Of a DNA stretch of 64,000 nt, positions 1-63,423 are shown piece after piece. The notes beneath the pieces were generated by a model. The model was given only the letters and a program-made list of their open reading frames with translations. It had not been told where the DNA came from and did not search any database. The stretch is from a virus. The stretch's first letter is position 1; every line of letters begins with the position of its first letter. The stretch covers positions 1 through 64,000 of the IMG/VR virus record IMGVR_UViG_3300020125_000051; one strand, given 5' to 3'. The position numbers and the translations under genes are program-made.

Positions 1-751
1 CTAACGGCATTATTTTCCTCTCACACTCTTTTAATTTAAAGCTACTTACGAGGTTTACGAGCGCACCATGGTCGTTTTGCATAACTGAATATTGCGGATA
101 CCAATTGAACTTCTATGTCTCCGTTAAGAGATTTTACTCCAATTGGAATTCGCTGATTAGTCATTATAAGCAACCATACGTACCTAGTCTTCATCCGGTT
201 CAGTGGTAAGTATCCATGGTCCAAATTGGACACTCCAACCATAGGAGCTTCTAGAAATACCAAATCCCCAAATGCCTTTATACGTTCTATATGTTCTAAT
301 CTTGATCATAGAAAGGTTGCCCCATCCATTCATTGCCGGCCGCATCTATGTGCGTCTTACCTCTGTGATCCATGTCTAGAACACAGTGGTTACCTTCAAG
401 CCTAGGATGTGGCATTCCACACTTTTCTACTTCTCTTTCGCCGAAGTAGTCAAAGAAATCATCTAGTAGTGGTCTGCTGTCCATTTTTCACCTTTCCATG
501 GTATTCTGGGCACGTTCGTTTGTGCTTGATAATACCATCTTTATCTGCTTTTTCGTAACAAATAATACATCTCATGAAATCTCCAATTTCGATCTAATGA
601 GCATTTCCATGAAATAGAACCAGCGCAGCATAAGTATAATCACTGTGCCTAAAGCTTCCATATAAAGTAATGCTAGTACCATGTTATTTTGTCTCCTATT
701 TTAGTTGTGCAACACCACAGATGTCTCTAGTACATCTATGATGCAATACAA

Positions 752-1306
752 CTAACTAGCCTTACGTTGCTCCAATGGTGGCCAAATTGCACCAGGATGG
801 ACCGGACAGCCGGCATCATGCATAACTGAGCATGGACTACCGAAATTGTGGTCAAATCCCAATTCGTGACCAACTTCATGATTAACCACCATGATTGTCC
901 AATCAATTCCTTGCGCCATTTTATTTTTGTTTATGTTTACATAGCGTCCGTCATAAGTGGCGCACGAAACACGGTCATTTTCTGCTTCTGTGGGATATGG
1001 TTTACCACATAGCTCAGCAACATTAGTTTCATTAATTTCTCGAACAATAAAATCTGGACTAGTACCCGGCTTAGCTTGATGAATTCCAGCCCATGACCTA
1101 TCATCGTTCAAAATACAATAAACTTGATCTTCAAAATCAGAAGGACCGAGCGCAATATAACTCAGTCCCCAATTGTTTTTATTAGTACCAGGGTGTGTTT
1201 TACTACATGCAGAATTCTCCGCAATCACTGGTGCGGCTACTGTTTTCATAGGACCACAGGCAGTAAGTAGAAAAAGCACACAACCTAGTAAAATTCTAAG
1301 TTTCAT
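752..1306 (-). CDS. Lipoprotein zinc metallopeptidase (metzincin/matrixin, DUF3152-like)
   Basis: Lipobox LLTAC, HEVGHELGFDH zinc motif, Met-turn SVMH. Confidence 0.8.
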   Translation of the reverse strand: MKLRILLGCVLFLLTACGPMKTVAAPVIAENSACSKTHPGTNKNNWGLSYIALGPSDFEDQVYCILNDDRSWAGIHQAKPGTSPDFIVREINETNVAELCGKPYPTEAENDRVSCATYDGRYVNINKNKMAQGIDWTIMVVNHEVGHELGFDHNFGSPCSVMHDAGCPVHPGAIWPPLEQRKAS

Positions 1307-1524
1307 TCCAAAACTTTTCCAATTCTACTGGATCAATGGCAAGCTTCACCATTAAATCATGTTTCAAAGTAGCACGCCTAATCTCAATTTCATCTTCAAA
1401 ATTTAGCTTAGCGCGCCTTATGTACAATCGTTGGATGTCCTTAATGTCAATTTTCACTTTGGTTTCCTTAATATAGTTAATTGTACAACACAGTACTCAG
1501 TTACCTGAGTACCATGCAATGCAA

Positions 1525-2232
1525 TTAACTACCAATGGATTTGCGAGTTGTTCCACCTACGCGAGTCTGACCGATGTCAGCGTTTCTACCAGCAGTAGAA
1601 CCAGCCGCGTAAGCGCCAGCATGAGTAGCATAACTCTGACCAATTTTACTTGTTCTCGGGTATGCCTCGCGGAACATGTTACGTACCGCAACAGACTTCT
1701 CCATTAGTACAATATCCATCCCGCTGGATTCAGTCCGTACTTCATTCTGAGCGCGCGTGTACGCATCACGTACCCGCTGTGAAACAGTAGCCGCATAACC
1801 AGCAATCCAGGAGTGATTAAACGTCTTGCCGTGCACTCCCTTTGGCTTTACTGCACTAGCTAGCCCGTTGTTCATCTGAATGATCAACGAACCATAGAGC
1901 ATAAATACTCTCTCCTGATCATTCTCGAATCCGAATACACGAACGCGAGTGTGATCATCGATAACAATACTTTCACAACCAAAAGCCTTACCAATGTGGT
2001 AAAGAATTTTAGCCTTAGCCAATGCATAGGGTGCTGGAATCCGATAGGACAGATCCACCAACTTATAAGTTGGCTTTGCTTGTCCAGCTTCTAGCATGGC
2101 TTCTTCGATGCCATGCTTAGCCATCAGGAACGTAATCTTATCTACGATAGCGTTACGCTCATCTAGCGAAGTTGCCGGATCCTCTGCCTTAGCCATCAGC
2201 TTAAGGATAATATCTTTCCAATTCTTTTCCAT
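1525..2232 (-). CDS. DUF2786-domain protein
   Basis: N-terminal ILKLMAKAEDP...LMAKHGI pattern and C-terminal AYAAGSTAGRNADIG. Confidence 0.7.
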   Translation of the reverse strand: MEKNWKDIILKLMAKAEDPATSLDERNAIVDKITFLMAKHGIEEAMLEAGQAKPTYKLVDLSYRIPAPYALAKAKILYHIGKAFGCESIVIDDHTRVRVFGFENDQERVFMLYGSLIIQMNNGLASAVKPKGVHGKTFNHSWIAGYAATVSQRVRDAYTRAQNEVRTESSGMDIVLMEKSVAVRNMFREAYPRTSKIGQSYATHAGAYAAGSTAGRNADIGQTRVGGTTRKSIGS

Positions 2233-2310
2233 TTTTATCCTTTGTTAGTATTTTATCCATTTTTAGTAGTGCAACACCACGCTGGTTTTCACCAGCATGA
2301 TGCAACGCTA

Positions 2311-2757
2311 CTAAATCTCGATCTCTATAATGCCTTCTAGCGCATCTTCAGCATCATTTAGTGCTTTTTTGCGGTCGATCAATTCCTCACCCAAATCTGG
2401 GTTTGCAATGACCCAGCGCACATGAGCCTCAAACTTATCAAAGTCGCTAGTCACACAATAGAAAATACTCTGAGCTTGTTCTTCAGTCAAGCCAAGAGTT
2501 GCCATTGCTGCATCTTCGAAAGAATATGCGTCACTGCCGTCAGGCATTAGTGGCCTATAACCACCATGAGCACGATCATTCACTTTGATTCGATTAGTAA
2601 GAAACTGGGCAGTACCAGCAAAGCAAAACGTTGACTTGCAAAGATCAACATTACCATCATTCCCATATTCTGGGATTACAAACAAGTTTTGATCCCACTG
2701 GTTACGATGTGCACGAATCCAGTCAAGCGTCTGCTCTACCAATTCCAAATTTACCAT
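2311..2757 (-). CDS. Hypothetical phage protein
   Basis: ORF with AAGGA RBS; WDQ...CKSTFCFAG motif. Confidence 0.65.
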   Translation of the reverse strand: MVNLELVEQTLDWIRAHRNQWDQNLFVIPEYGNDGNVDLCKSTFCFAGTAQFLTNRIKVNDRAHGGYRPLMPDGSDAYSFEDAAMATLGLTEEQAQSIFYCVTSDFDKFEAHVRWVIANPDLGEELIDRKKALNDAEDALEGIIEIEI

Positions 2758-2845
2758 TACTTATCCTTTGTTAGTTTTATTCCATTCCAATTTAATCGTG
2801 CAACACACTGTCTGTGGCAAATCCCACAGGCAGCATGCAACGCGA

Positions 2846-3037
2846 CTAACCTGATACCTTCGCGTTAATTGCAGTATTCACCAATTCTTCAACTTCATCT
2901 TTTGGAAGATTCAGTCTTGTCATTAGGTCTTCAATCATGTTATCATGCCATGTCCAGACCATAATGTTGAAGTGGCGAACCTCAGTTTCTACAATGTTGT
3001 CAATTTCTTCTGGTGTTAGTTGTTTCTTTGTTGCCAT
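2846..3037 (-). CDS. Hypothetical protein
   Basis: GAGG RBS; stop codon lies in a family-1 hairpin. Confidence 0.6.
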   Translation of the reverse strand: MATKKQLTPEEIDNIVETEVRHFNIMVWTWHDNMIEDLMTRLNLPKDEVEELVNTAINAKVSG

Positions 3038-3112
3038 TTTACCTCTTTTTTGTTATGAAAACACATAATTCCATAGCAACTGCAAAAAGAAGTATTCCTG
3101 CAATTGTCCAAA

Positions 3113-3370
3113 TTATTCCCATTTTGCTTTGTTCTGAGAAATATGTGTTCCACGAGATTTAAGCATCATTTCCAAGTTATCTACTCGGATCTGTGCCTGC
3201 TCCCATTCACGATCACGTCTAACGTCTTCATATTCCATCGCGTCGCCACCAGTAATGCATTTCGTGCAATACTTAGGTGGTCGACCACGTCGAGACGGAA
3301 TCATGAAGATTTCATTACATGCATTGCAGAATAAGCTCATTAGCTTTTCTGGAACTTCAACTGTTGTCAT
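3113..3370 (-). CDS. Small zinc-ribbon protein
   Basis: CNAC...RRGRPPKYCTKC. Confidence 0.6.
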   Translation of the reverse strand: MTTVEVPEKLMSLFCNACNEIFMIPSRRGRPPKYCTKCITGGDAMEYEDVRRDREWEQAQIRVDNLEMMLKSRGTHISQNKAKWE

Positions 3371-4771
3371 TTTTGTCCTTTTGTTATAGTTGATAGTTCA
3401 ACACCACAGTAGTGCGAGACTACTATGATGCAAAGCTATCAATCCAGCGTTACACCAGTAATTCTAGATTTTAGTGTTCTTATTACTTTTTTAACTTGTG
3501 GCATCAAGCATCCCAAGATGGTTCATTGTTAACTTTTGAACAACGCTCTACGAAACCCTGAAAACCTAGTTCTACCCAATCATGCTCTTCTAATGGAAGA
3601 CCACAAACCTCACACACTCTAGAGTTTACTAGGTAGTACTTAATAAACTCTTGATCTATGAACAATAGACCATTTAGCTTTTTCTTCTGTATTCCTACTC
3701 CTACGGTTGCCATTAGTGCAAGCCTCGCATTTGTGAGGTACCGCAGTCGTGACAGACTCGCAGCATAACAGGTGCATTATCCTGCCGATGGTCAAACTCA
3801 GTGGCTTGTGGCACGCCAACCGTTACGGTGCGCCGATGCCAGCGTGACCAACGATGACCTAGACAAATTCCAAATATTCTCATTTTCTGTGTCCTTTTTG
3901 TCTAGAAATTTCTGCAAATTTCCGTTTTAAGTTAGATGTGCATATCGTCACGCATCGGTGGATGTGTAACAATAAACTCCGCTAACTTCTACATACATGG
4001 TACATCTTTTTTAATCTGGGTGCAAGGGGTACCACACTACCGGGTTATTTATTTCGTTGCCCAGCGTGGCGTACAGCCCGGCTAGCTGACCCGTCCAGGT
4101 CGGCTAGCTCGGCTGCGCGTCAAGATCAAATTACCTGAAAATCTGTACATTTCCAGTCATTAGGTAAGTTATTGTTATCATTGTTAAGTGAGAGCATTCT
4201 ATCCAATTCCTTGAATTTAATGGCAATCAGGTACATAGTTTTCATAAACTCACCTTCCGCCAAAGTCTGCTCCATTACACCCAGAAAGGTCCGGATTTCT
4301 TGGAGTAGTTGCTCCGTCGGTTGTTCATTTGTTCCATCCATATTTTCATTTCCTTTTCCATTAAAATGTGTGCGTTATACAGATCTTGAATCGTGCCACG
4401 AGCAGAAGCACCACAGGAGCAGGTCAATACGGAAATCGCCCGCCAAAGACCTACTTTGTGATACATTACTTGATGTGGCAAACCGGCAATTAGCCAATTA
4501 CTTGGCAATTGCAAGTTATGTGGTTGTGGTACATTCAATTATTCTCCCTATTCAAGTTTCTATTAGGTGAATAACACCACGCTGGCACTTGTCCAGCATG
4601 ATGCAAAACACCTACATTTTCTTATCCTTTTCAATTTCTCGCAGACAATTCAAGCAAGTAACTTCTTCAAGATTCTGAGAATAACTCTTAGGTCGGTACC
4701 TATTCCAGCCGTGCAGAGACTTCCCACAGGCAGTAATCTGATTCAACCCAAAAGATATATCGTAGTGTGTT

Positions 4772-5158
4772 TTAGATTTGGTTGCCATCTTCATCACTTC
4801 GCTTTAGAACGTCTTCTTTGATAGGAATACCTGCTGCTTCAGCAGCACTACGTCGATGATAACCTACTTCATAATTATCATCTTCCAACCTAACGATTCT
4901 AGTACCAGGAATCTGGTACTTTACCTTAGGTGGTTGCACGCTTTCTACTGTGATGCTCTCACCAAAGTTATGGTCTTCTATCATACTTACTTCGTCCGTG
5001 AAAATTTCCAATTTTTCTTCATAATCACGGTTACGCTCGAATTCGGCTGCTTCCTGTGGGGTTTTGCAACCCGGGTAAGTTTTCGAATTAAATGGTACAC
5101 GATGCTCAACCGTAACTGTCTGACGAATTACAATAACATACTCGTTTTCAGTAGTCAT
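4772..5158 (-). CDS. Hypothetical protein
   Basis: ORF overlapping its neighbours in the leftward operon. Confidence 0.55.
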   Translation of the reverse strand: MTTENEYVIVIRQTVTVEHRVPFNSKTYPGCKTPQEAAEFERNRDYEEKLEIFTDEVSMIEDHNFGESITVESVQPPKVKYQIPGTRIVRLEDDNYEVGYHRRSAAEAAGIPIKEDVLKRSDEDGNQI

Positions 5159-5660
5159 CGCTCTCGCTCTCTCGGTCGTCGCTCCATATAATATAGTTAT
5201 ATGGAAGGACTAGCGCACGCCAGTTAAAAGGATAATCTATATATGTGGTAGACAACGAGGCCCACCAAATTAGATTGGTAGTTACGTAAGCAACCACAAA
5301 AGTAGCAAAAAGTATGGCAAAAATAATACCAAGCATTTACTTACCTTTCAAATTGACCAAAATTTTCAATTAGTTGTGCAACACAATACTCGTCTGAAAA
5401 AGACGAGTATCATGCAACGCAACTAAATTTAATTCTTACTGTTGTCGTCGGCTCTTTGACAGAAACACCACAGGATCAGCCTTGCACTTGCCGGACTGAT
5501 TAGCTACAGCCCGTGCATATGCCTCATCCTGCAACTTGCGTCGATGATCCCGCATTGCCCGTTTTCCCTGTGGTCCGCTAAATACACTCATATTTTCTCT
5601 TTTCTGGTTCCGACTCAATTTAAAAGTGTCAATTTTTGAGGACTTTATTTGTCAACACAA

Positions 5661-5702
5661 ATAGCAGAAGACAGTTACTGGCGAGTAACTGTCTTCTGCT
5701 AT
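5661..5702 (-). terminator. Intrinsic terminator-like hairpin
   Basis: Perfect 19-bp stem with a 4-nt loop, followed by a U-rich run on the minus strand. Confidence 0.6.
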
Positions 5703-5709
5703 CATAAAG

Positions 5710-5838
5710 TGGCTACGGTAGGAATCGAACCTACTAACCCCGGACCGTAACTATTTTTACATAATTACGGTAGCCCGGCCCGCACGTTCGGAGGGTCTAT
5801 TTAGATACGTCCTAATAGTGCTATATCCAGGGATAGCC
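5710..5838 (-). ncRNA. tRNA-like ncRNA (~129 nt)
   Basis: Canonical T arm GUAGG-UUCGAUU-CCUAC and acceptor-like pairing GGCUAU/GUAGCC+A; no normal D or anticodon arm. Confidence 0.55.
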
Positions 5839-5987
5839 TAGAATGGCAGTTGATTTCGGACAATCTGCCAATGTCCTATGTTTTTGTTGCTTTTACCGAA
5901 TTGTCCATATTATTCCTTACCTTTCGGGTTGGATGGACATAGCACGGTATGTCCCTTTCGGGACATACCGCACTAAATCAACCCAAC

Positions 5988-6755
5988 TTACTCGTTGTCG
6001 TCTTCATTGTCCGCTTCGACCGGCTTGCCGGACTTCTTAGCCTTAGCTGCCTTTTCAGCTTCCTTGGCTGCCATGTCCGCATTGAACCGATCCGTTGCTT
6101 CCTGAATAGTCGTCGAAACCTGATCAACGTCTACGCTCTGCTCCTTAAGGAATCCCTGGTACTTCTCGATCAGCTTAGTAGTCTGTTCCTTACGACCAGT
6201 CCATAGCGCAAGCCGGGAACTAGTGTAAAGATCCTTGTACACCGCTGCGCCGAGAAGCGACAGGTTATCCTCTGCGGTGCGCGAGCTAGCGCGCTGGGCA
6301 CCGGTACCACGAGTAGACAAGCGCTCCTTACGGTTAGTCCACCATTCGGTAGCCTCATCACGCTTGATGTAAACTCGCGGTTCAGCATCATCCGGACCCT
6401 TCACAAGAATGTGCGGGATCCGCTCACGCTGAGCCTTGACAGTCTGGTAAACAGACTGCGGAACGACATAGTCATTCGCGTCAAGGTCCAGACCAGCGGT
6501 GATCTTAGCCTTCATTAGGGCCTGAGTCATGTGTGCAGCGAATTCAGTAACCGACATGGCGCCGTCCGGAACCTCTGCAACAGTCTCCACAGGAGCATCA
6601 ACAGTAGCGTCGCCGCTTCCGTCGGTTGCTGAATCCTGCGAATCACCACTAGTAGCTTCGGTGACGTTTTCGGTAGAAGTGTCGTCGGTTGCGGTAGAAG
6701 TGCCCGCAGTCTCGATACCCGCGAAAATGTCAACGTCAGTGTTACTCTGGGTCAT
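5988..6755 (-). CDS. Hypothetical protein with acidic N-terminus and charged C-terminus
   Basis: 255-aa ORF, GAGG RBS, more GC-rich than its neighbours, own promoter candidate. Confidence 0.75.
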   Translation of the reverse strand: MTQSNTDVDIFAGIETAGTSTATDDTSTENVTEATSGDSQDSATDGSGDATVDAPVETVAEVPDGAMSVTEFAAHMTQALMKAKITAGLDLDANDYVVPQSVYQTVKAQRERIPHILVKGPDDAEPRVYIKRDEATEWWTNRKERLSTRGTGAQRASSRTAEDNLSLLGAAVYKDLYTSSRLALWTGRKEQTTKLIEKYQGFLKEQSVDVDQVSTTIQEATDRFNADMAAKEAEKAAKAKKSGKPVEADNEDDNE

Positions 6756-6840
6756 TTTGTTGCCTCTCTTGTTTTGTGTGGATCTTGTTTTTTCTTTGGA
6801 TCTTGAGCAGAGTGATCGTCCAGTTTTGAATGACCTGCTC

Positions 6841-6878
6841 TCTGCCTTACATGGTCCATTCTACCATGTAAGGCAGGC
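6841..6878 (-). promoter_or_regulatory. Extended -10 promoter (TGGTAGAAT) inside an inverted repeat
   Basis: CTGCCTTACATGG...CCATGTAAGGCAG palindrome overlapping TGnTAGAAT. Confidence 0.5.
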
Positions 6879-6928
6879 AACATGCCAGTCTATTTTAGCT
6901 GTTTCCCAAGATTTTTTAGGTTAGAAGA

Positions 6929-7840
6929 CTAGAACAGGTGTCCTAGTCGGGTTAGGTGGTCTATGACCTTGATGCCCGGTTTAGCCGGAAAAATGATGTG
7001 TTTGGGTCGCCCGATGTTGCCATCACGGTAGGCACCCAAATTAATCAAACCATACTTAAATAAATAGTTTAGGTCGGTTCGGGCTTTTTGTCTCAAAAGT
7101 GCAGTTGGTACAAATCCTTTCAATACCTGCATTCCTGGTACATGTGAGACATTTAGCATTACAATGTTGAAGTCTTTATCCGGTTCTGCTACTTTTGCCC
7201 GAAAATCACTTAAACGTTGGGCACGCGGCACTAATGCATCTTGTTCACGTTGTGCTTTTTGTTCATTTTGTTCCTTTTGTTCCTTTTCTTGTGCTGTGTC
7301 ACTTGTGTCATATATTGGTGCTTTACCTTCTCTTACGCGGTTTTCGGCTGCATTTATGGCTTTTAGAATTACTTGCAGCATTTTGAGTGATCTGATTGGA
7401 ATAGTTGCTTTTACGAAGAAATCATCGGCGTCGTCCCAAGTGTTAGGATTGTATGCGATATCGTGCCCTGCGCGATCATTTATCTCTCTTATTACGTCTA
7501 TGGCCTGTTCTGCCTTGATTAGGCCATTGTTTACTAATTGTCCGGTTACTGTGCATAACGGTGGATCATAGTATTTGCTGCCGGCTAGGCAGCTTCTGTC
7601 GTGCATTTCCATTAAGTCTTGATTGTTCGAAAGTATCTTTTCGTAACTTACCTGTGGATCTGTGATGTTTAGTGTGTTGTCGTCCGATTTGGCCTGTTGG
7701 GCTAGTTTTAGGTCATAATAGCGTGATTCTAGCCATACGGCTAGCTCTAGGCTCATGTCGCCTAAGTGGTCCGCATATTCTCCGCCTTGTCCTATCTTAT
7801 GGGCGAAAAAGATGGTATCTCCGAGATTTACGATAGCCAT
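6929..7840 (-). CDS. Hypothetical protein (303 aa)
   Basis: Long ORF with AAGG RBS; no family recognised. Confidence 0.7.
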   Translation of the reverse strand: MAIVNLGDTIFFAHKIGQGGEYADHLGDMSLELAVWLESRYYDLKLAQQAKSDDNTLNITDPQVSYEKILSNNQDLMEMHDRSCLAGSKYYDPPLCTVTGQLVNNGLIKAEQAIDVIREINDRAGHDIAYNPNTWDDADDFFVKATIPIRSLKMLQVILKAINAAENRVREGKAPIYDTSDTAQEKEQKEQNEQKAQREQDALVPRAQRLSDFRAKVAEPDKDFNIVMLNVSHVPGMQVLKGFVPTALLRQKARTDLNYLFKYGLINLGAYRDGNIGRPKHIIFPAKPGIKVIDHLTRLGHLF

Positions 7841-8724
7841 TCCGTTACCTTACTCGTGATCTTATTGATAGACATGGGTCGATAGTACATATGTGCTATA
7901 AATCCAGGACAGTCAATATGATTACTGAGCGTTAGTGTGGATCTTGAAAATTGTTACGGAGAGTATTGGTAATTAACGCGCACATACGTGCTAAAAAAAT
8001 CTTTTGACGTGTCAACCGATGGCGCTTAAGGCTCTCGAATCGGACAGAAAACATCCGATCCCGATGCCGTAACCGACCCTAAGTGTACATCTGAAACGCG
8101 CCGACACGGTCACGGTTAGGTTGCAGTGCAGTTAAATAAAATATGAAATATGTTTTGTGATTTAGTGGTGGGTGGTTGGGGTATGAACAAATGCTTTTTT
8201 ACATATAGGGTCGATTAAGGTTTGCAAAAAGATTGCTTTAAAAACAAATGAAATATTTCAGAAGAAACAAATATCCGGTTTGGAAGGATTATTCGGGAAT
8301 TTCTTGCCAGGCATTCCGGGCCTTTTGACAACCTTAGAAAATAGGTATGATGTTCGTTGGTATATGAAAATTGGCATCGTATACGAGAGCAGATTGTGTG
8401 AAATGGGTTGATTGGGTGGGTTTGTCCAGGAAAATCGGACATGTCCGTTTTGGTAGGGTGTCGCGTTTGGAATGGGTAGGTGGTAAGGTCCTTCATTAGG
8501 TTCTTTACGGCAACTTGCCCAACTAATGCCCATCGTGCCCCACTATGCCCCCATATGTCCGTTTTGAAAAAATCTTGCGGGCTGTTTGTCCGACTGGATG
8601 GGAATTGTCCAATTTTTGAGGAGTTGGGTTGGTATGCCCAAATATGTCCGAATTATGACGACCATTCAAGATCATCTATGATCGATGATCTTGAATGATC
8701 GTTACAATTCGGCTTTGTGAGGTT

Positions 8725-9510: not shown

Positions 9511-9584
9511 TTTGTACTCCTAAATGTTGGTTTAGGTGGATTTAGTGCAAAACGGAGCAGATGTCCGTTTTGCACTAAATCCAT

Positions 9585-9803
9585 CTAACGTGGCGAGTCG
9601 TACGTATCGAACGACCAACCCCATTTGTCCATTTGTTCGTACTTTGCGTGTGTCCAGTTGATTATGGTAGTAACGTCATCGCTTGTGTCAATTAGGAAAA
9701 AATGGCCGGTTGGTGTTACAATGGCAATTTTGTTCATTTCCGTCTTGACTAGAACGATTGTCCCGTTGTCGGTGGTTGCTACCGCTTCATACCTGTTTGT
9801 CAC
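9585..9803 (-). CDS. Hypothetical protein
   Basis: AGGAG RBS, GTG start, bounded by family-2 hairpins. Confidence 0.65.
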   Translation of the reverse strand: MTNRYEAVATTDNGTIVLVKTEMNKIAIVTPTGHFFLIDTSDDVTTIINWTHAKYEQMDKWGWSFDTYDSPR

Positions 9804-9877
9804 CTTAGTCTCCTAAAGTAGTGAATTAGGTGGACATGCGGCAAAACGGCGCAATGTCCGTTTTGCCTGATCTCTAC

Positions 9878-10102
9878 CTAATTTCCATATGAAGGCATTT
9901 CGCCCCACGTGTCCTGAAGTGAAGGAGAATCGTAGTGAAAGTCGTCTATGTCCTCAAAGTACGATTCGTCCTCTGAGTCCCAATCGCCTTGAATGGTGTA
10001 TTTGTCTTCATAGTCCGATTCGAGAAAATCGTCCTCGTTCATGAAGTATGCTACTCCTATCATGGTTTGATCTGAAATGTCCGTTTCATCCGGTAGTAAC
10101 AT
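9878..10102 (-). CDS. Very acidic small protein
   Basis: Asp/Glu-rich with aromatic residues; AAGGA RBS. Confidence 0.65.
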   Translation of the reverse strand: MLLPDETDISDQTMIGVAYFMNEDDFLESDYEDKYTIQGDWDSEDESYFEDIDDFHYDSPSLQDTWGEMPSYGN

Positions 10103-10187
10103 TTTTATTCCTTTTGTTTGGATTTAGGTGGACATGGAGTGATTGGGATGATAACATCCCAATCAAACCAAATCTACCTAATCGTCA

Positions 10188-10328: not shown

Positions 10329-10582
10329 TGTTTGTCCCCTTCATTACGATCCTGCCCTTCCCTCCCCTTATGACACAATCTAGGTACAATTGCGCCAAAT
10401 CGTCCGATTGAACGGCTTTTGCCCAATTTTTGAGGAATCTATTAATCCTCTTGATTTGAGCAGGTCTGAGGGTAATGCGGTAGTTTCGCATGACTTGTCC
10501 TTATTTGGTTGGGGTTATCCACTTTTAGGTGGATATGAACCAGGATGTCCCTTTTGAGACATCCTGGAACATAAGCACCTAA

Positions 10583-11152
10583 TTAGGCGACATCTGCCAT
10601 TTCGTCCACGATTGCCGGCCCTATGAAGGTTGGTACGGGTTTGGTGCTAGTTGTCCGCTTTGCGGGAACTTTCGGCTTTGTGCTTTTTGCCGCTACTGTG
10701 GCCTTTGCCGGAGTTGTCCGTTTTGCCGGTGCTGTCTGCTTTGTGGTGATCTTGGCGGTTGTCACCTTTTCGATCAATATGCCCGCTGCGAGCAACATTG
10801 GGGCATCTGTGATAAACACGTAGATTACCGCAGTTGTCCAATGTTGTCCGTTTCGTGACACAAAGTCTACAATGTGCCAACCTGACCCATACATGGCGAA
10901 TGCGCAGATTAGACCAAATCCGCCGTATATGACCGTTTTCATCCACTTAGTCCTAGGCGAAAAGTAACTAATCAGATGAGACGATAGAAAAGCCACAACT
11001 GGTGGCAAAGCCGACACAACGATCGAATCCCGGTAAAGTGCACCAGAACGGACATTTGCATAAAGTGAAAATGTCCCACAAATGGCCAATGTCGCGGTTG
11101 CCCACAACTTCCCCTTTTGTGCCTTCGTGCGTGGAATGGACGGAATGCCCAT
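10583..11152 (-). CDS. DUF2637/SpdA-like membrane protein with Lys/Thr/Ala-rich tail
   Basis: Four hydrophobic segments, SLYANV...SALPPV motif, PAKR repeats. Confidence 0.6.
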   Translation of the reverse strand: MGIPSIPRTKAQKGKLWATATLAICGTFSLYANVRSGALYRDSIVVSALPPVVAFLSSHLISYFSPRTKWMKTVIYGGFGLICAFAMYGSGWHIVDFVSRNGQHWTTAVIYVFITDAPMLLAAGILIEKVTTAKITTKQTAPAKRTTPAKATVAAKSTKPKVPAKRTTSTKPVPTFIGPAIVDEMADVA

Positions 11153-35424: not shown

Positions 35425-36377
35425 CTACTGTCTATGGTTGGGATACCTCATCCCATGACGATACACCTACTAGTTTAGATGGATTGTCATTCTTTACCTG
35501 TAAGATTACCGATGGCGACCATTGGTATGAAAACTCAACTGCAACCGCTAAGCTTACGGCGATGCGTGATTTTGGTTGTCCCATTCTTGGCACTTACCAC
35601 GTCCTGTGGGGTAATGCGTCAATAGCCAACCAAGCTGCTTGGTATATTCAAACAATGGATAAAAGAATACCATGGTGGCGTGATTTTCCATATTGGATTT
35701 GTCAATCAGATAATGAACCATTTGGTTATAATGTAAAACCAACAATATCACAAATTAATGAATTTCATGATAGAGTTATAGACTTATCCAATGGAAAATT
35801 ACCATTCGAACGACACATGGGTTATACTCCACAGTGGGTATATGGTGCTGGTGTAGCACAACAAAAGGTAGCTTGGTGGCAGTCTAACTATGGTACAAAT
35901 CCCACAGGATGGTATCAAACTGTCTACAATAACACAGTTGGAAATAGTTCTTCAAAGTGGAATGGTCCTAAAGAAATAATGTTTTTGCAGTATGGATCAA
36001 ACACCACTATCGCTGGTCAAACGACAAGCGATGCTAACGCTTTTCGTGGTAGCCTAGAAGATTTGAAGAAAGTATTAGGAGGAGGAGAAGACGATATGAC
36101 TCCCGAACAGAACACGATGCTATACAATACTGCCCAGCTAACCTATGAGGCTTTAATTTTGGGTAACGATACCATGGGTGCCTCATTATTCCTTGGTAAT
36201 CCACCAGTACAAACTGATGCAATACCGATTAAATTAGTACGCAAGGTAAACGATTTAATGACGAAAGTGACGGAACTCGAAGCCAAGATTGACGCTTTGC
36301 AAGCTGGCAGTGGTCTTACTTATGAGCAAACCGTACAGGCGGCTTTTGAGGGTGCACAAAAGGCTGAAACTGAGTAG
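35421..36377 (+). CDS. Endolysin, GH25-like muramidase
   Basis: GWDTSSH, GTYH, DNE (DxE), WWQSNY, LQYGS, DANAFRGS. Confidence 0.85.
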   Translation: MTTVYGWDTSSHDDTPTSLDGLSFFTCKITDGDHWYENSTATAKLTAMRDFGCPILGTYHVLWGNASIANQAAWYIQTMDKRIPWWRDFPYWICQSDNEPFGYNVKPTISQINEFHDRVIDLSNGKLPFERHMGYTPQWVYGAGVAQQKVAWWQSNYGTNPTGWYQTVYNNTVGNSSSKWNGPKEIMFLQYGSNTTIAGQTTSDANAFRGSLEDLKKVLGGGEDDMTPEQNTMLYNTAQLTYEALILGNDTMGASLFLGNPPVQTDAIPIKLVRKVNDLMTKVTELEAKIDALQAGSGLTYEQTVQAAFEGAQKAETE

Positions 36378-50961: not shown

Positions 50962-50971
50962 GCCTACCCCT

Positions 50972-51032
50972 TAGTATAAAACACAGCCACCAATAGCTCT
51001 AGGTTAGAGCTATTGATGACTGCGTTGAACTA
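50972..51032 (-). other. Long intergenic hairpin between SSB and primase genes
   Basis: CAGCCACCAATAGCTCT/AGAGCTATTGATGACTG; pairs fully with G-U on the minus strand. Confidence 0.6.
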
Positions 51033-51036
51033 ATTA

Positions 51037-51504
51037 TTATTTAGGAAGAAGAGTATTTCCGCTAGACTTACTCTTCACGTCGGCTGCCTTTTTGAAACCC
51101 TTAACCTCAAAACGCTCTGATAGTTCTGTACCATCATCCAATGTTCTTGCTGGCTGCTTGAATCCCTTAACTACAACTGATTCCCCTAGCAGCTTCTCAA
51201 GTGGTGGAACAGTAAAATCACCAGCGTTAGGATCATATCCAAGTGCCCGCATTAGCTGAGCAAGTGTGTAGAGAGAACCATCAAAAAGCATGATTGAGGA
51301 AAGAAGACTAGTACCAGCGTAGGCGCCTTCTTGAATGACTAGGGTTAGCTGCCAAAATGGCTTGCCAACATTGGGCTTACCCGGCTTAACGTACTTAATC
51401 TTACCATCCGTGATATTAACTAAATACTCACCAGATGGAGGAACTTCGCGTACCTTGGAAGTTGCTTCTTCATTAGTAAAATTAACTTTCAATGGCTGTG
51501 TCAT
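51037..51504 (-). CDS. DUF669-like ssDNA-binding protein
   Basis: VPPSGEYLVNI...EGAYAG; next to a Sak4-like ATPase. Confidence 0.7.
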   Translation of the reverse strand: MTQPLKVNFTNEEATSKVREVPPSGEYLVNITDGKIKYVKPGKPNVGKPFWQLTLVIQEGAYAGTSLLSSIMLFDGSLYTLAQLMRALGYDPNAGDFTVPPLEKLLGESVVVKGFKQPARTLDDGTELSERFEVKGFKKAADVKSKSSGNTLLPK

Positions 51505-53694: not shown

Positions 53695-54042
53695 TCATTC
53701 CGCACTGTCCGCGTAATCCTGTGAGATTCCATGTCCAATCGGATTAGCTTTGAAATCACGTTTCTTGACTTCTGTCCAGCGTGATTGAATTACTGTACTA
53801 AGATCAATGTCTGCTTCATTGGCAACATCACAAATCTTAATAAACACGTCGCCAAGTTCTTTCTTGATTTCTTCTTGCCATTCAGTGTATGAGCCACGAA
53901 CTTGTTGGTATTGTTTGAGAATGGCTCGACATAGCTCACCAACTTCTTCCGCTAGTCCTACTACGGCTGACATTGGTGTACCCTTGCCAAAGTTATGTTC
54001 TACCCATTTTTCTACTTCGAATTGGTAATCTTCAATGTTCAT
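53695..54042 (-). CDS. MazG-like nucleotide pyrophosphohydrolase
   Basis: LAEEVGEL...ELGDV. Confidence 0.85.
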   Translation of the reverse strand: MNIEDYQFEVEKWVEHNFGKGTPMSAVVGLAEEVGELCRAILKQYQQVRGSYTEWQEEIKKELGDVFIKICDVANEADIDLSTVIQSRWTEVKKRDFKANPIGHGISQDYADSAE

Positions 54043-54628
54043 CTTTATCCTTAGGAGCTAACAATGGACGAAGCCTAGCTATTTGATGGTCTGTCAAAGG
54101 TGGCGCGTTATCAACCAACTTCTTGATATACTCATCAATGTCTATTACAGGCTTAGGCTTTGGCTTTGTCACGATCATCCCAACGCTTATTTGTCAGACG
54201 CTGAATCACGCTTACCACCTGGATCCTTTATATCTTGATCCGTTCTACGTGGATTATCTTTCTTACCATCAGTTCTGGTGTGGTCTGGCTTCGGGTCTTT
54301 ACTCATCATTTCACCTCACAACAAATAAGAGCATTCCAACATACACCACTAGTCCTCCACATCCCACAGTTAAGATGAGAGCAAGTATGAAGGATGCTAC
54401 GTATTTCACTGAGATAGGGATTTTTCTGTCAATGCGCTTAATAACACTTTAACCATAGTAGCTAATGTAGATTCAATGGTTGGGCCAATTGCTTCCCAAC
54501 CGTTATCATTAGTACGGGCATAAGCATACCAATAACCATGCGGATATTGGTTAGATGATGCTGGATCAAAATCTAATTTAAAAGAATTAAATTCTGTCAT
54601 GTCTTTTATGTCATCCTTAACTATAAAC

Positions 54629-61228: not shown

Positions 61229-61360
61229 TGGGTTCCTCCTGAGGTACTTTTTCTAACCGCTCAGGTTCTACAGGTGCAGGAGTAGCATCTAGCTTTTCAT
61301 AAACTGCAACTTGAACTACTTCTCCAATGTCACACATTTCATTCCTTTCTAAATATTATG

Positions 61361-61432
61361 TGGACCAGGCAGGAATCGAACCTACGACACGAAGATTAAG
61401 AGTCATCTGCTCTACCATTGAGCTACTGGTCC
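61361..61432 (-). tRNA. tRNA-Lys(CTT)
   Basis: Cloverleaf; anticodon loop CUCUUAA; T loop UUCGAUU. Confidence 0.9.
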
Positions 61433-61493
61433 AATGTTAGCCTACTGCCATGATCATGTCAATAGCCTAACATACATTGATTAATTTAAATAC

Positions 61494-61982
61494 TTAAAAC
61501 CATGTGTAGTAGTCCCAGCGCTTTTCATACATAATAAGCGATGGTACGTAATTAGCTTCAATTTGATGCTTCCACATTAGCATTCGGCCAGTTCGACCGT
61601 TACCATCAACAAATGGATGTATATGCTCAAACCTTACATGTTCATGAATTGGATCTAAGGTGAACCAATTCAACATGTGTGTCAGCCAATCATCCATTCT
61701 TTCTTGAATTTCACGCCAATGTGGACACATTCTGCCACCAACAGTAACATTGTTGACACGGTATGATCCTGCGCCACCAGTTCTAGCCGGTAGTAGATTC
61801 TTCATGATAAGACCATGAAGATGGAGAATCATTTCTCCGGTAAATGGCATTGATTGCTTAATAAGCCATTGCCATGCGACTAAGCTTTGTTCTATTTCTC
61901 TTGGATCTGTAACACTCTCGATTAAATTCGATTGCGTGATATGTTCACGCATATCGAACTCACTCATCATCGTCGTCGTCAT
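61494..61982 (-). CDS. Fic-domain protein
   Basis: HPFVDGNGRTGR. Confidence 0.9.
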   Translation of the reverse strand: MTTTMMSEFDMREHITQSNLIESVTDPREIEQSLVAWQWLIKQSMPFTGEMILHLHGLIMKNLLPARTGGAGSYRVNNVTVGGRMCPHWREIQERMDDWLTHMLNWFTLDPIHEHVRFEHIHPFVDGNGRTGRMLMWKHQIEANYVPSLIMYEKRWDYYTWF

Positions 61983-62326
61983 CTGGATCCCAACCTAGTT
62001 CATCTTCGATTTCTTGTTTAGCTTCATAAAACTGTTCTTTGGCATAGATATCATCCATTTTAGATTGAACACGTATGGGTTCAATACCAAGTACTAGTCT
62101 TTCGTAGTTCATCTTAGATGGCTTACGACATCTACTACAAACCCACAGACCTGATGAAACGTCTAGCGTAAAACCATCTTGTTTCTGCCATACACCTCTG
62201 ATGATACAGTTACACCACGGGTGGATGTTCATTTCCAGTCTGTACACCATCAATAATGTCCAATTCTATTTTTGCCCAATAAGTTTTTGTAGTTCTAGTG
62301 TAATGATCAAATCTACTTTCAACATG

Positions 62327-62399
62327 CACCCGTAACTGGATTCGAACCAGCAACCTCATCCTTAGAAGGGATTTGCTCTATCCATTGAGCTATACGGGC
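62327..62399 (-). tRNA. tRNA-Arg(TCT)
   Basis: Cloverleaf; anticodon loop CUUCUAA. Confidence 0.9.
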
Positions 62400-62546
62400 T
62401 TTTTATTTAGCATTGCAATTTGTTCTTTACGCAGTTTATTGTCTGGCTTATGACCTTTTGCATAACCATCACATTTGTTGCTACCAAGTTCATCTTTCCA
62501 TTTAGTGCCATCCCACCAAATATCAATGGTACATTGCACACATTCT

Positions 62547-62855
62547 CTAGGTTTCTGTGTGCGTGACATTTTCAGGCAAACCTACTAATCTTCTCAATCG
62601 TCTAACTTCTTCAATCGAAAGTACATTTGGTATTACGTAACGACTATTTCTACACAATTCTTTACATTCAGCGCAACGACAACCGTGAGTTTTGTAACAA
62701 GTTAAACTTGGATGGATGTGTTGTAACACCTTTGGCTCAGATTTTCCGAATTTTCGCTTTTCTCTTTTTGTCGAGGCTAATTTTTTACATTCTATACAAC
62801 GACAACCATGACTCTCATAACAAGTCACGCTTGGGTGTCTATGTGGAAGTCCCAT
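62547..62855 (-). CDS. Protein with two HPSxTCYxxHGCRCxxC repeats
   Basis: Motif occurs twice. Confidence 0.65.
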   Translation of the reverse strand: MGLPHRHPSVTCYESHGCRCIECKKLASTKREKRKFGKSEPKVLQHIHPSLTCYKTHGCRCAECKELCRNSRYVIPNVLSIEEVRRLRRLVGLPENVTHTET

Positions 62856-63003
62856 TTTTTGGTTCCCGTGCTCTCGGACGTGTCAAAATAATTCCGGCCC
62901 GCTCGCGCTTCCTAGCAGCCGTGTTGAGCGCGCGGCACGCGACACATCGGCAGCCATGTTTCTTATAGCATGTTTCACTAGGATGTTTGTGTTTTCTTGG
63001 CAC
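62839..63003 (-). CDS. Protein with one HPSxTCYxxHGCRCxxC motif
   Basis: Start moved to the GTG just after the tRNA. Confidence 0.5.
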   Translation of the reverse strand: MPRKHKHPSETCYKKHGCRCVACRALNTAARKRERAGIILTRPRAREPKNGTST

Positions 63004-63004
63004 G

Positions 63005-63077
63005 TATGGATGATGGGAGTCGAACCCATAACTAACAGTTTTTGAAACTGTTTCCTCTTCCATTGGGATACATCCAT
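63005..63077 (-). tRNA. tRNA with CAA anticodon (nominally Leu), short variable loop
   Basis: Acceptor AUGGAUG/CAUCCAU; anticodon arm ACAGU-UUCAAAA-ACUGU; T arm AUGGG-UUCGACU-CCCAU. Confidence 0.75.
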
Positions 63078-63352
63078 ATAACCAACAGACAGCTAGAATA
63101 CGTAACGCATCCAACCCGGTGGCTGCCTGTTGGAGTATTCAATTTGTTTTACATCCAGACGAAGTCATTTGGGTCGAACATTTTTCCTCATCCTTTCTAC
63201 TAATTTTTTGGTGGTGGGGACAGAGCCGACCTGATCACCTTCATTGTAGCTCAGACAGATACTCTCAACTAATAGCGCTATTTATTGAAAATAGAGCTGA
63301 ACAGCCTATGACACTACAATGTTATCCCCTTATTACATCGGCTAGGGCACCG

Positions 63353-63423
63353 CTCCATGACCTAGGTTCGAACTAAGACTACCGCATCCAGAGCGCAGCG
63401 TGCTACCATTACACCATCATGGA
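63353..63423 (-). tRNA. tRNA-Gln(CTG)
   Basis: Cloverleaf; U1-A72; anticodon loop CUCUGGA. Confidence 0.9.

Follow-up and report, generated by a model that had tools for sequence, protein, structure and literature searches.

Defined RNA processing signals of phages are, to our knowledge, few in number; most come from T7-like phages and a small number of Bacillus phages. The annotation of most uncultured phages stops at protein genes. The early precursor RNA of phage T7, of ~7 kb, carries five RNase III signals; in the same account, the idealised RNase III substrate has 22 bp and two-fold symmetry, and mismatches or loops at the target site lead to single-strand cleavage that leaves stabilising 3′ hairpins behind (PMC3867540). 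Stem-loops of another kind, the PeSLs of T4-type phages, are described as repeated stop-to-start junctions that flank orphan genes and recombine, with gene gain and loss as the outcome; they combine a strong sigma-70 promoter with a terminator (PMC2839356). Cluster M mycobacteriophages, siphoviruses of ~83 kb with a tRNA array, are reported to carry CR3 and CR4 repeats with upstream stem-loops among small genes, and inserted genes bring a repeat copy with them (PMC7953290).

Seven hairpins were found between many small genes of an uncultured soil phage (G000; 81,007 bp), within the window (the whole 64,000-nucleotide stretch that was analysed), where the minus strand is the coding strand. Judged by the known anatomy of the T7 RNase III site, they resemble the T7 signals in being several inter-cistron hairpins of about two turns, probably on one early transcript, with a non-Watson-Crick zone in mid-helix; unlike the T7 sites, they have a stop codon fixed in the lower stem, an invariant U-U mismatch and a G-U-rich core. 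There is no sequence likeness between the two, and cleavage in G000 is putative. With the PeSLs they share the repeated stop-to-start junction and one gene indel (between G000 and the related phage G009), whereas the fold in G000 is selected on one strand. The likeness to the cluster M repeats is one of description; the major capsid protein and DNA polymerase I of G000 have less than 33% identity to those of cultured phages among the best matches listed.

Anatomy and Statistical Support of the Hairpins

Each hairpin is 55–60 bases long and consists of a 7-bp lower stem, a weak zone of four layers (usually C-A, two pairs and U-U) and an upper stem of ~13 bp (Table 1). The covariance model built from the seven window copies (R1) comprises 22 pairs and two mismatched layers; the weak zone and the best-kept core lie in mid-helix, in layers 8–15 of 24, and the weak layers of the two-turn helix are centred near the U-U. 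A preliminary description made from the sequence had placed the seven hairpins at these positions, with UUGCAU(CAU) pairing to (GUG)GUGUU through several G-U pairs, and both R1 and the shuffled controls agree with it. Its C-A and U-U mismatches around two pairs are borne out in five of the seven copies, the exceptions being h701, where the mismatch is shifted, and h4560 (also labelled h4565), where a loop takes their place; the covariation that it had noted in the first flanked pair corresponds to columns 14/55 of the alignment.

Table 1. Hairpins in the G000 window, with covariance model scores, sense-strand folds and adjacent reading frames.
Hairpin	Position	Strand	R1 (bits)	Fold (kcal/mol)	z	Covarying pair	Upstream stop codon	Further features
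h701	698-759	−	66.3	−25.6	−5.4		TAG of ORF 752-1306, inside lower stem, offset +5	AGGAG and ATG (36-codon ORF) 15 nt past hairpin; lower mismatch displaced by one position (U-A, then A-C)
h1474	1474-1532	−	71.5	−29.9	−7.3	A-U	TAA of DUF2786/DUF7168 gene (1525-2232), in stem	
h2262	2260-2318	−	77	−33.5	−8.2	G-C	TAG of ORF 2311-2757, in stem	best model match
h2792	2789-2853	−	61.7	−30.8		G-C	TAG of ORF 2846-3037, in stem	upper stem similar to the one in the G009 hairpin preceding the DUF2786 ortholog (junction alignment)
h3390	3387-3446	−	70.4	−25.4		U-A	TGA at stem register, terminates 21-codon ORF 3439-3504 (translation)	ATG of 21-codon ORF overlaps stop of preceding ORF (TGATG)
h4560 (h4565)	4560-4619	−	61.2	−28.3			TAG of ORF 4612-4797, in stem	middle zone a U-rich 4x4 loop (U-U, U-U, U-A, U-U); lower stem GUAGGUG/CACCUAA resembles that of hairpins at 9.5-10.6 kb
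h5370	5367-5430	−	72.6	−30.4	−7.3	G-C	ORF 5436-5618 ends 8 nt before hairpin	first copy along transcription direction; UUAG...CUAA stem base still present

A loose core pattern matched seven times in the whole window against an expectation of 0.72, a number that none of 100 shuffles reached; six of these matches are hairpins, the match at 40701 is not one, and the h4560 copy was missed. Searched against the whole 81,007-bp genome, R1 returned exactly the seven window copies on the minus strand (61–77 bits, E-values 1e-14 to 4e-19), and its remaining matches were three weak antisense echoes. Fold energies of the sense RNA range from −25.4 to −33.5 kcal/mol in the seven copies, z values lie between −4.6 and −8.2, and none of 200 shuffles did as well; the antisense fold is weaker in all seven, and counted over 17 copies, the sense fold is the more stable in 16. 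Minimum free energy folds contain 19–25 pairs, with energies of about −25 to −36 kcal/mol across copies. A search of window positions 1–8000 with Rfam 15 placed no family on a hairpin at E ≤ 1, and in the whole G000 genome only tRNAs exceeded the gathering score.

Two known classes of repeat were tried and rejected: REP/REPIN/MITE-type repeats, as the hairpins form one module per genome (possibly bar a copy at 59.4 kb in the related phage G032) and no transposase family turned up in the 103 of 150 ORFs scanned with Pfam, and integron attC sites. The attC consensus boxes read R''(RYYYAAC)...R'(GTTRRRY); by direct reading, the hairpin stems have GTT...AAC on both strands, which is the inverse order, and no integrase was found among the ORFs scanned with Pfam.

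Covariation and Conservation in Related Phages

The covariance-model search proposed in the preliminary description yielded 27 further copies in three related uncultured phages (G009, G032 and G033). In the resulting alignment of 34 copies from four phages, 95.5% of 748 cells are paired, a value matched by none of 500 shuffles, and slid-alignment controls gave 23–50% pairing; compensatory changes on both sides occur at 20 of the 22 pairs. The conserved C-A, two-pair, U-U register that had been described for the window stands for the U-U mismatch, which is invariant (34/34), and does not hold generally for the C-A mismatch (21/34); a U-G is present among the two flanked pairs in 28 of 34 copies. 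Since G-U cells outnumber A-C cells by 125 to 11, the coding (sense) strand is the selected form. Both arms of the core read G-Y-G-U-U-G-C-A-Y, a near-identical 9-mer with the U-U as its centre of pseudo-symmetry. The hairpin preceding the DUF2786 ortholog is present in all four phages with four different stem sequences, and across the family selection has kept the core, whereas the stems around it have been replaced. Structure, strand and position relative to stop and start codons are conserved across the four phages.

The copies are confined to a single module per genome, with the possible exception of the one at 59.4 kb in G032, which is a linear fragment. Within the module, the gene at 2311–2757 and one junction are present in G000 and not in G009, a single event, and the sole G009 hairpin at that junction resembles a hybrid of two G000 hairpins. 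Orthologous junctions also gain or lose hairpins: G009 has copies beside the orthologs of G000 80152–80962, where G000 has none.

Position Relative to Stop Codons and Translation Starts

All seven window copies, the ten copies in G009 and the 18 in G032 and G033 lie between ORFs on the coding strand. As the preliminary description had remarked, the stop codon of the upstream gene is often part of the stem: it occupies stem positions 2–4 in five of seven copies in G000 (six, if the 21-codon ORF ending at 3439 is included), in 6 of 10 in G009 and in 14 of 18 in G032 and G033. Among the 35 copies examined, nine have an ORF that terminates at some other point, with offsets from −9 to +9. A Shine-Dalgarno sequence and a start codon follow 8–34 nt past the hairpin (40 nt of 3′ flank were viewed in G032 and G033); by direct reading, GGAG(G) or GGA begins 0–5 nt from the hairpin end in 14 of the 18 copies of G032 and G033, and the upper stem begins 7 nt past the stop codon. 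Other genes of the same module are coupled without a hairpin, by overlap of stop and start codons, as in the TGATG at 3504.

Gene-Enclosing Stems of the Same Phage

The mismatch, two-pair, mismatch geometry that had been noted as common to the hairpins and to gene-enclosing stems was found in those stems, at 11.5–15.5 kb. The two elements share a sense-strand duplex, this kind of centre, an in-duplex stop codon and the same leftward arm of small genes; they differ in that the enclosing stems are long-range structures with 30-nt arms ~300 nt apart and other flanking sequences, whereas the hairpins are local. Their centres also differ: C-A / U-A, A-U / A-C in the enclosing stems (5'-CUAA-3' on both strands) versus C-A / N-N', U-G / U-U in the hairpins. 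One enzyme class could act on both.

Candidate Functions

As the preliminary description had suggested, the hairpins may be processing or stabilising sites between cistrons; in the favoured reading an RNase III-type enzyme of the host would act on them, as it does on the early mRNA of T7, and a probability of about 0.4 is assigned to this. Such cis-acting hairpins would punctuate the polycistronic sense mRNA of a small, probably early or accessory, gene block; the double-strand-specific enzyme would recognise each hairpin and cleave, probably one strand only, within the weak middle zone or next to it, which would leave the upstream cistron with a protective 3′ hairpin and let the downstream cistron begin a few bases ahead of its Shine-Dalgarno site. 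As a by-product, the repeated junctions could double as recombination points for gene gain and loss. Transcription as one RNA, the cutting itself, the identity of the enzyme and the position of the cut are all predicted from sequence in this scheme. With 19–25 pairs and a weak zone in mid-helix, the hairpin geometry fits the published description of RNase III substrates (PMC3867540). Selection for the fold as sense-strand RNA, the location between cistrons, the comparable centre of the gene-enclosing stems, retention of the core where other stem sequences change and the missing U-tract also speak for this reading. No RNase III or dsRBD gene was found in the three genomes scanned (G000, G009 and the GC-rich phage G001), and the enzyme would therefore be the host's. 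The absence of such a gene counts against this reading, the phage was found in no RNA run, and three further considerations weigh on the same side. RNase III needs little sequence, yet the core is specific and neighbouring modules have different cores, so that module-specific readers would fit better; a ribosome on the in-stem stop codon would melt the helix in every round of translation, so that cleavage would have to compete with translation; and the pseudo-symmetry of the core is centred on the U-U base pair, while a cut staggered by 2 nt implies a centre between two pairs.

The recurrent stop-codon register (5/7, 6/10 and 14/18 copies) and the proximity of GGAG(G) or GGA to the hairpin end in G032 and G033 would also suit a device for ribosome-gated coupling, in which the hairpin base links the stop of one gene to the Shine-Dalgarno sequence of the next. 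A terminating ribosome would melt the lower stem and the weak zone and either free the 3′ arm on the Shine-Dalgarno side or pass across the stem base, so that translation of each gene keeps pace with that of its predecessor, and the closed hairpin would damp independent initiation. With 7 nt between stop codon and upper stem, the spacing is the one from which downstream structures influence ribosomes during decoding; for a stop-bound ribosome, the weak zone would fall at the mRNA entry site. This reading is nevertheless unlikely: it accounts neither for the invariant U-U nor for the retention of the core sequence, a 55-nt device seems needless where other genes of the module are coupled by stop/start overlap, nine of 35 copies have the ORF end elsewhere, and such a mechanism is impossible for the phage's gene-enclosing stems. 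Terminators or attenuators without a U-tail are highly unlikely, in spite of strong folds (−25 to −36 kcal/mol) located directly 3′ of genes, at which the host polymerase might halt, perhaps only without upstream translation. An actinobacterial host is hinted at by the phage's Ro60 protein, which is closest, at 57%, to the Ro60 proteins of Streptomyces phages, and terminators without a U-tail have reportedly been described from the early region of the actinophage phiC31. The hairpins are not canonical terminators by sequence, since a U-tract is missing in all seven window copies (the preliminary description had noted the lack of a consistent one); the 3′ flanks are A-rich, and none of nine terminator-like sites falls on a hairpin. 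Mycobacterial RNA polymerase is described as requiring a U-tract (PMC3993855), and a terminator a few bases past a translated gene as almost fully repressed (PMC4824070), a translation-linked repression that would apply here with the stop codon inside the stem. Moreover, a row of seven to eleven terminators without an intervening promoter signal would silence the block, and the conserved core would be unexplained. Promoter-like sites, by a sigma-70-type consensus that may not be the host's, are not enriched (14 against 19.4 expected); a lone weak site (9/12; 727–698), scored by the same consensus, overlaps a hairpin.

That core and flanks evolve differently, that different phage modules keep different cores, and that the near-identical 9-mer on both arms suits a dimer are all in keeping with an operator for a dedicated, sequence-specific RNA-binding protein of phage or host; it would dock on the U-U-centred core, where the mismatches widen the groove, and control translation or decay of the gene block. 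This is distinctly unlikely; the gene that precedes the first hairpin encodes a small basic protein, and G009 lacks an ortholog of it. A phage Ro60 particle is one candidate for such a reader. Ro60 is encoded in all three complete genomes of the group (G000, G009 and G033), and also in the otherwise unrelated G001; of the 150 G000 ORFs this phage shares only two, Ro60 being one, and its single hairpin agrees with the family in core and stop register; TROVE was found in none of 21 other records that match the pattern. However, the Ro60-binding region of Y RNA and YrlA is described as containing the motif GNCGAAN0-1G, and the hairpins lack the CGAA/GNCGAA ligand motif (PMC4201824, PMC12135203); by direct reading, CGAA occurs in none of 34 aligned hairpin copies. 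The likeness to Y RNA and YrlA consists in a Ro60-encoding phage and in structured hairpins of stem, internal loop and stem; the hairpins differ in lacking a tRNA-like domain and an Rfam match, in lying more than 4 kb from rsr and in standing amid coding genes. In G000, rsr is located at 70238–71827, and the distance to the closest hairpin, counted across the record ends, is about 9.9 kb. R1 also finds no hairpin in five of five cultured actinophages that encode Ro60. Among 50,697 cultured phage records, 356 have Ro60, and nearly all of these are from actinophages; a host group in common may be all that the co-occurrence of Ro60 with the hairpins reflects, and the link suggested by these genomes is at present a lead. 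A broader version of the reader model, more speculative and correspondingly less probable, would make a punctuation code of these signals: the cistron boundaries of each early-gene block would carry their own stop-anchored double-stranded RNA signal (the U-U-centred hairpins, the second hairpin type at 9.5–10.6 kb, or the gene-enclosing stems), read by a dedicated dimeric factor and not by general RNase III, here maybe Ro60 with host PNPase. Least probable of all is an element acting at the DNA level, either a junction repeat or a miniature mobile element, which would spread or promote the shuffling of cassettes and for which the RNA fold would be incidental. The indel of gene 2311–2757 with its junction between G000 and G009, the hybrid-looking G009 hairpin, and hairpin gain and loss at orthologous junctions would be expected of such an element, and PeSL cassettes of T4-type phages are described as acting likewise (PMC2839356). 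Against it stand the compensatory changes at orthologous junctions in four diverged phages, which argue for a maintained fold, and selection on one strand, which is needless for double-stranded DNA, although single-stranded sense DNA is possible; transposase, integrase and HUH enzyme were absent from the 103 of 150 ORFs scanned with Pfam.

Implications

The 34 copies form a structured RNA family whose covariation is unusually clean, whose U-U never varies and whose register to the stop codon is fixed, and the family is ready for a family model and for bench tests by short synthetic RNAs, for which the host is not needed. If the hairpins are RNase III-type signals, they would reveal substrate rules of a soil, probably actinobacterial, enzyme, and the order of stop codon, hairpin and Shine-Dalgarno sequence would offer a compact natural insulator for operon design. 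If another factor reads them, phages would use RNA punctuation that is specific to gene blocks; a punctuation code of this kind would let a phage switch or destroy whole message blocks on schedule, and with Ro60 as the reader, the hairpins would be the first case of Ro60 docking sites inside messenger RNAs.

Structure of the Seven Intergenic Hairpins

All seven intergenic hairpins proposed in the preliminary description are present on the coding strand between positions 698 and 5430 (see the table); since genes at 1-16.2 kb run leftward, the hairpins are to be read on the minus strand. Alignment of the seven copies with MAFFT and folding with RNAalifold returned a single helix of 22 pairs, with compensatory changes in 13 of them. 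Followed along the coding strand from its 5' side, the helix comprises a lower stem of 7 bp, usually with UUAG at the start and CUAA at the end; four weak layers, which in five of seven window copies are C-A, N-N', U-G and U-U; and an upper stem of approximately 13 bp that opens with the pairs G-U, C-G, A-U and U-G; the loop measures 4-7 nt in the window and 4-10 nt across all copies. These 24 layers (7 + 1 + 2 + 1 + 13) amount to about two helical turns, with the weak zone and the best-kept core at mid-helix. The N-N' pair covaries as had been claimed: three copies have G-C, one has A-U and one has U-A. As sense RNA, the hairpins fold at -25.4 to -33.5 kcal/mol (z -4.6 to -8.2; as good in 0 of 200 shuffles), and in all seven the sense strand folds better than the antisense strand, by 4.7-11.4 kcal/mol. 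A U-tract is absent from the window hairpins, which bears out the earlier view that they are not typical terminators; scans with promoter and terminator consensus sequences show no enrichment. A covariance model built from the seven copies (R1) finds these copies only in the whole 81,007-bp genome; the wider search suggested in the preliminary description recovers 27 further copies in other phages and, in Rfam 15, no family on the hairpins.

Features of the phage genome and of related or compared genomes (window positions unless another frame is named; L073, L042 and L072 are local frames on G000 beyond the window, G001 and G009)
Feature	Position	Strand	Remarks
Seven intergenic hairpins	698-759, 1474-1532, 2260-2318, 2789-2853, 3387-3446, 4560-4619, 5367-5430	minus	
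Gene with junction missing from G009	2311-2757		
GC-rich region	3884-4125		non-coding, unusually GC-rich
Hairpin in GC-rich region	4058-4123		-34.8 kcal/mol
Match to another organism's contig	4076-4113		low likeness; soil run
Basic protein, 51 aa	5436-5591		
Gap hairpins	5639-5704, 5927-5992	minus	-31.7 and -41.8 kcal/mol
Second hairpin family	9518-9588, 9821-9886, 10118-10183, 10523-10588	minus	base UUAGGUGGA...UCCACCUAA; internal loops; -29 to -37 kcal/mol
Hairpin at primase junction	50969-51034	minus	-35.9 kcal/mol; base UUAGU...ACUAA; G-U pairs
MazG-domain ORF	53695-54042	minus	6e-10
DGQHR-like protein, 289 aa	59436-60305	minus	phrog_5931; weak domain match, E 0.0024, below cut-off
tRNA genes	61360-63423 and L073:1002-16511	minus	
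Fic/DOC-domain ORF	61494-61982	minus	8e-16
Ro60 ortholog	G000 70238-71827 = L073:7238-8827	minus	TROVE 1.7e-33; Ro60 vWA 5e-59
tRNA-like match upstream of rsr	L073:8873-9030	minus	23.7 bits, below gathering score
G001 hairpin	L042:1489-1545 = G001 54492-54548	plus	core GUUGCAUCAU/GUGGUGUUGC
Degenerate hairpin copy	G009 35785-35842		
Six tandem AAGGAC units	G009 L072:1795-1840		Shine-Dalgarno-like

Genome Context and Related Phages

The record (G000; 81,007 bp, 127-bp terminal repeat, 42.5% G+C) is that of a siphovirus whose terminase, portal, capsid, tape-measure and tail genes occupy 16.6-42 kb on the plus strand; the rest, on the minus strand, comprises small genes, DNA polymerase I, primase, helicase and a tRNA array. 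The array holds approximately 27 tRNA genes among small ORFs, counted from 29 Rfam rows of which two are the same genes present in both sources; the Fic/DOC and MazG ORFs lie in the replication arm. The sequence was found in soil metagenomes; contigs from four soil runs over 600-5700 are identical wherever they match, with no variant letters listed, and no RNA run is listed among the 24 runs that contain the stretch. Megablast against cultured phages gave zero matches, and the DNA polymerase and capsid proteins have at most about 32% identity to cultured phages among the matches listed. The similarity of the Ro60 protein and the DUF3152 and DUF2786 domains hint at an actinobacterial host, for which the G+C content is low; the Pfam scan covered 103 of 150 ORFs.

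Relatives were sought by DNA polymerase and by the pattern TTAG-5N-TTGCAT ... GTGTTG-5N-CTAA, which combines stem base and core. By sequence comparison, three uncultured phages are true relatives: G009 (75.8 kb, complete, 10 R1 copies), G033 (80.2 kb, complete, 7 copies) and G032 (63.9 kb, 84% complete, 11 copies at E<=1e-5). They match 77, 67 and 52 of the 150 G000 ORFs, respectively, with 82-90% identity in the capsid protein and 67-68% in the polymerase; the mean identity of matches is approximately 54% for G032 and G033. The hairpin module, a block of small genes on the minus strand, is syntenic between G000 and these relatives. Since only the window copies went into R1, the 27 copies elsewhere are independent finds. 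In the alignment of 34 copies, which was fitted to R1 and hence is biased toward it, 95.5% of 748 cells are paired and both-side changes occur in 20 of 22 pairs (a degenerate 35th copy was excluded by the E cut-off); none of 500 column shuffles matches any of five measures, and sliding the 3' partner by 1-3 columns lowers pairing to 23-50%. The effect size and the unfitted RNAalifold result concur. The hairpin before the DUF2786 ortholog is found in all four phages, each of which has different lower and upper stems, so that compensation at this junction is evolutionary and extends beyond paralog differences.

Selected Strand, Core, and Register to the Genes

Within the 22 paired columns of the 34 copies, G-U fills 125 cells vs. 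11 for A-C; selection on double-stranded DNA predicts no such bias, and the selected form is therefore the single-stranded coding strand, probably as sense RNA, with sense single-stranded DNA less likely. The U-U mismatch is found in all 34 copies, followed by the A-U above the core C-G (31), the U-G at the top of the core (30), the U-G below U-U and the C-G of the core (28 each), and the G-U above U-U (24, with substitution by U-A or G-C in nine copies); a sub-family with UUUGAU/GUCAUG still pairs. The register described previously, C-A, two pairs and U-U, holds as the majority form in five of seven window copies, but C-A occurs in only 21 of the 34, and the constant element is U-U. Both core arms carry a near-identical 9-mer, G-Y-G-U-U-G-C-A-Y, so that the 9-bp duplex is roughly two-fold symmetric around U-U; its constraint is asymmetric, the upper half being better conserved.

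In most copies, the upstream ORF ends inside the stem, with its stop codon at model positions 6-8, equivalent to stem pairs 2-4. The stop was found at this register in 6 of 10 G009 copies and five of seven window copies (ORFs of at least 30 codons), and in 14 of 18 G032 and G033 copies (ORFs of at least 20 codons). A sixth window copy has a 21-codon ORF ending at the register, its ATG overlapping the preceding stop; with it, the observation that the stop codon is often part of the stem extends to six of seven. Copies whose ORF stops a few bases further upstream also retain the UUAG...CUAA base. The next Shine-Dalgarno site and start codon lie 8-34 nt 3' of the hairpin, and in most G032 and G033 copies GGAG(G) or GGA starts 0-5 nt past its end; module genes without an intervening hairpin have stop-to-start overlap. 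In a whole-genome check, stop-anchored long hairpins were found at 5/16 ORFs in this block, 3/24 in the next block, 2/36 in the structural arm and 5/74 elsewhere.

Several other elements were observed. The second hairpin family follows genes of the next block and shares its stem base with the copy at 4560-4619; two of its four copies were flagged as stop-codon-anchored. Both gap hairpins fall within the 370 nt that separate the conserved 255-aa gene from the first gene of the block, and they may mark the boundary between two transcription units; the first of them has a perfect stem of 20 bp with UUUGUGUUGACA after it. The hairpin at the junction of ORF 51037-51504 and the primase gene has a family-like build and a different core. 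In G009, the tandem AAGGAC units abut the start codon of a small membrane-protein gene.

Distribution Outside the Group and Co-occurrence With Ro60

Big collections were covered by pattern scans, and the pattern matches (75 loci in total) were then scored with R1. The DUF2786 protein as query gave zero close relatives; a two-protein alignment of its 255-aa neighbor against viral and metagenome contigs returned G009 only, and the module is absent from five DNA-polymerase relatives, all fragments (G006, G007, G008, G010, G011). A CAUCAU-subtype scan of the genomes of 185,579 species gave 31 matches vs. roughly 29 by chance, as we estimate from collection size, all scoring 12-23 bits; a G-C-subtype scan of viral contigs gave true hairpins in G009 copies alone. 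Among 26 single matches in the first viral scan, a full hairpin was found in G001 alone, an unrelated 97.9-kb phage of 67% G+C (31.2 bits, vs. 11-23 bits for 53 other pattern matches scored at E<=1); the match in G002 falls inside coding sequence. The G001 hairpin has the family's non-Watson-Crick pattern in the core, a 6-bp GC inner stem and the TGA of an upstream 167-aa ORF in the stem register, with a second hairpin and a Shine-Dalgarno site downstream; judged by these features, it is the only convincing one beyond G000 and its relatives. Literature searches gave no description of such hairpins.

G001 has two of the 150 G000 ORFs in common, encoding Ro60 and the DGQHR-like protein. The Ro60 gene (rsr) of G000 sits within the tRNA array and has orthologs in G009 (62% identity) and G033 (60%); the G032 fragment is without the entire region. 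The TROVE gene was found in none of 21 other pattern-match records, and in all five cultured actinophages with a Ro60 gene that were searched, R1 gave no match. Of 50,697 records of cultured phages, 356 carry Ro60, nearly all of them from actinophages (the closest being Streptomyces phages, 57%), so that its co-occurrence with the hairpins may reflect just a shared host group. A reading of the hairpins as Y RNAs was rejected, as they have no CGAA Ro60-binding motif and are distant from rsr; no core-motif pair was found near rsr in G000, G009, G001 or Streptomyces phage Phredrick, and G000 and G009 do not align upstream of rsr. A functional link between Ro60 and the hairpins appears to be of low probability. 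The tRNA-like match just upstream of the G000 rsr adjoins a GGGGAC...GUCCCC stem that has a T-arm-like hairpin; this segment may be a YrlA-like Y RNA.

Possible Functions of the Hairpins

The likeliest role for the hairpins is that of processing and stability signals for a host RNase III-type enzyme, a reading to which we assign a probability of about 0.4 and whose steps beyond fold and location we infer. An idealised RNase III substrate has 22 bp and two-fold symmetry, mismatches or loops at the target site allow the enzyme to cut a single strand, and the 3' hairpins that remain stabilise upstream RNA; the T7 early precursor carries five RNase III signals (PMC3867540, in part). Among known systems, T7-type intercistronic signals are closest in working; the repeat-plus-stem-loop junctions of cluster M mycobacteriophages are alike in genome behavior (PMC7953290, in part), and PeSL cassettes in junction recombination with gene gain and loss (PMC2839356, in part). 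By sequence or defining features the family lies outside all three, and direct reading shows that attC has a different box order. Three points weigh against RNase III: the core is conserved beyond the known needs of the enzyme and differs between G000 blocks, each termination event requires the ribosome to melt the lower stem, and the core symmetry is centered on a base pair instead of the step from one pair to another. A scan of G000, G009 and G001 found no RNase III or dsRBD gene.

Coupling gated by the ribosome would account for the double anchoring to stop codon and Shine-Dalgarno site but leaves the conserved core unexplained, and seems rather unlikely; a dedicated RNA-binding reader, which would account for the core and the block-specific families, is improbable. 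The 51-aa basic protein was rejected as an N-like arginine-rich reader, with no G009 ortholog and E 0.02 in G001. Terminators lacking a U-tract are a quite doubtful proposition: the copies follow one another without promoters, a U-tract is required by mycobacterial polymerase (PMC3993855, in part), and a terminator a few bases past a translated gene is almost inactive (PMC4824070, in part). That the hairpins serve primarily as DNA-level junctions or mobile elements is highly unlikely, since the strand bias contradicts it; recombination at the hairpin junctions nevertheless appears real as a side effect, to judge from the gene at 2311-2757: G009 lacks this gene along with one junction, both of which G000 has, and the lone G009 hairpin mixes features of the two G000 hairpins that flank the gene.

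For the RNase III-type reading, a further set of structures is relevant: long-range stems enclose eleven other early genes of G000 on the minus strand (10 of 11 confirmed), with C-A / U-A, A-U / A-C at their center. A single enzyme class that reads both the hairpins and these gene-enclosing stems would be the most economical account.
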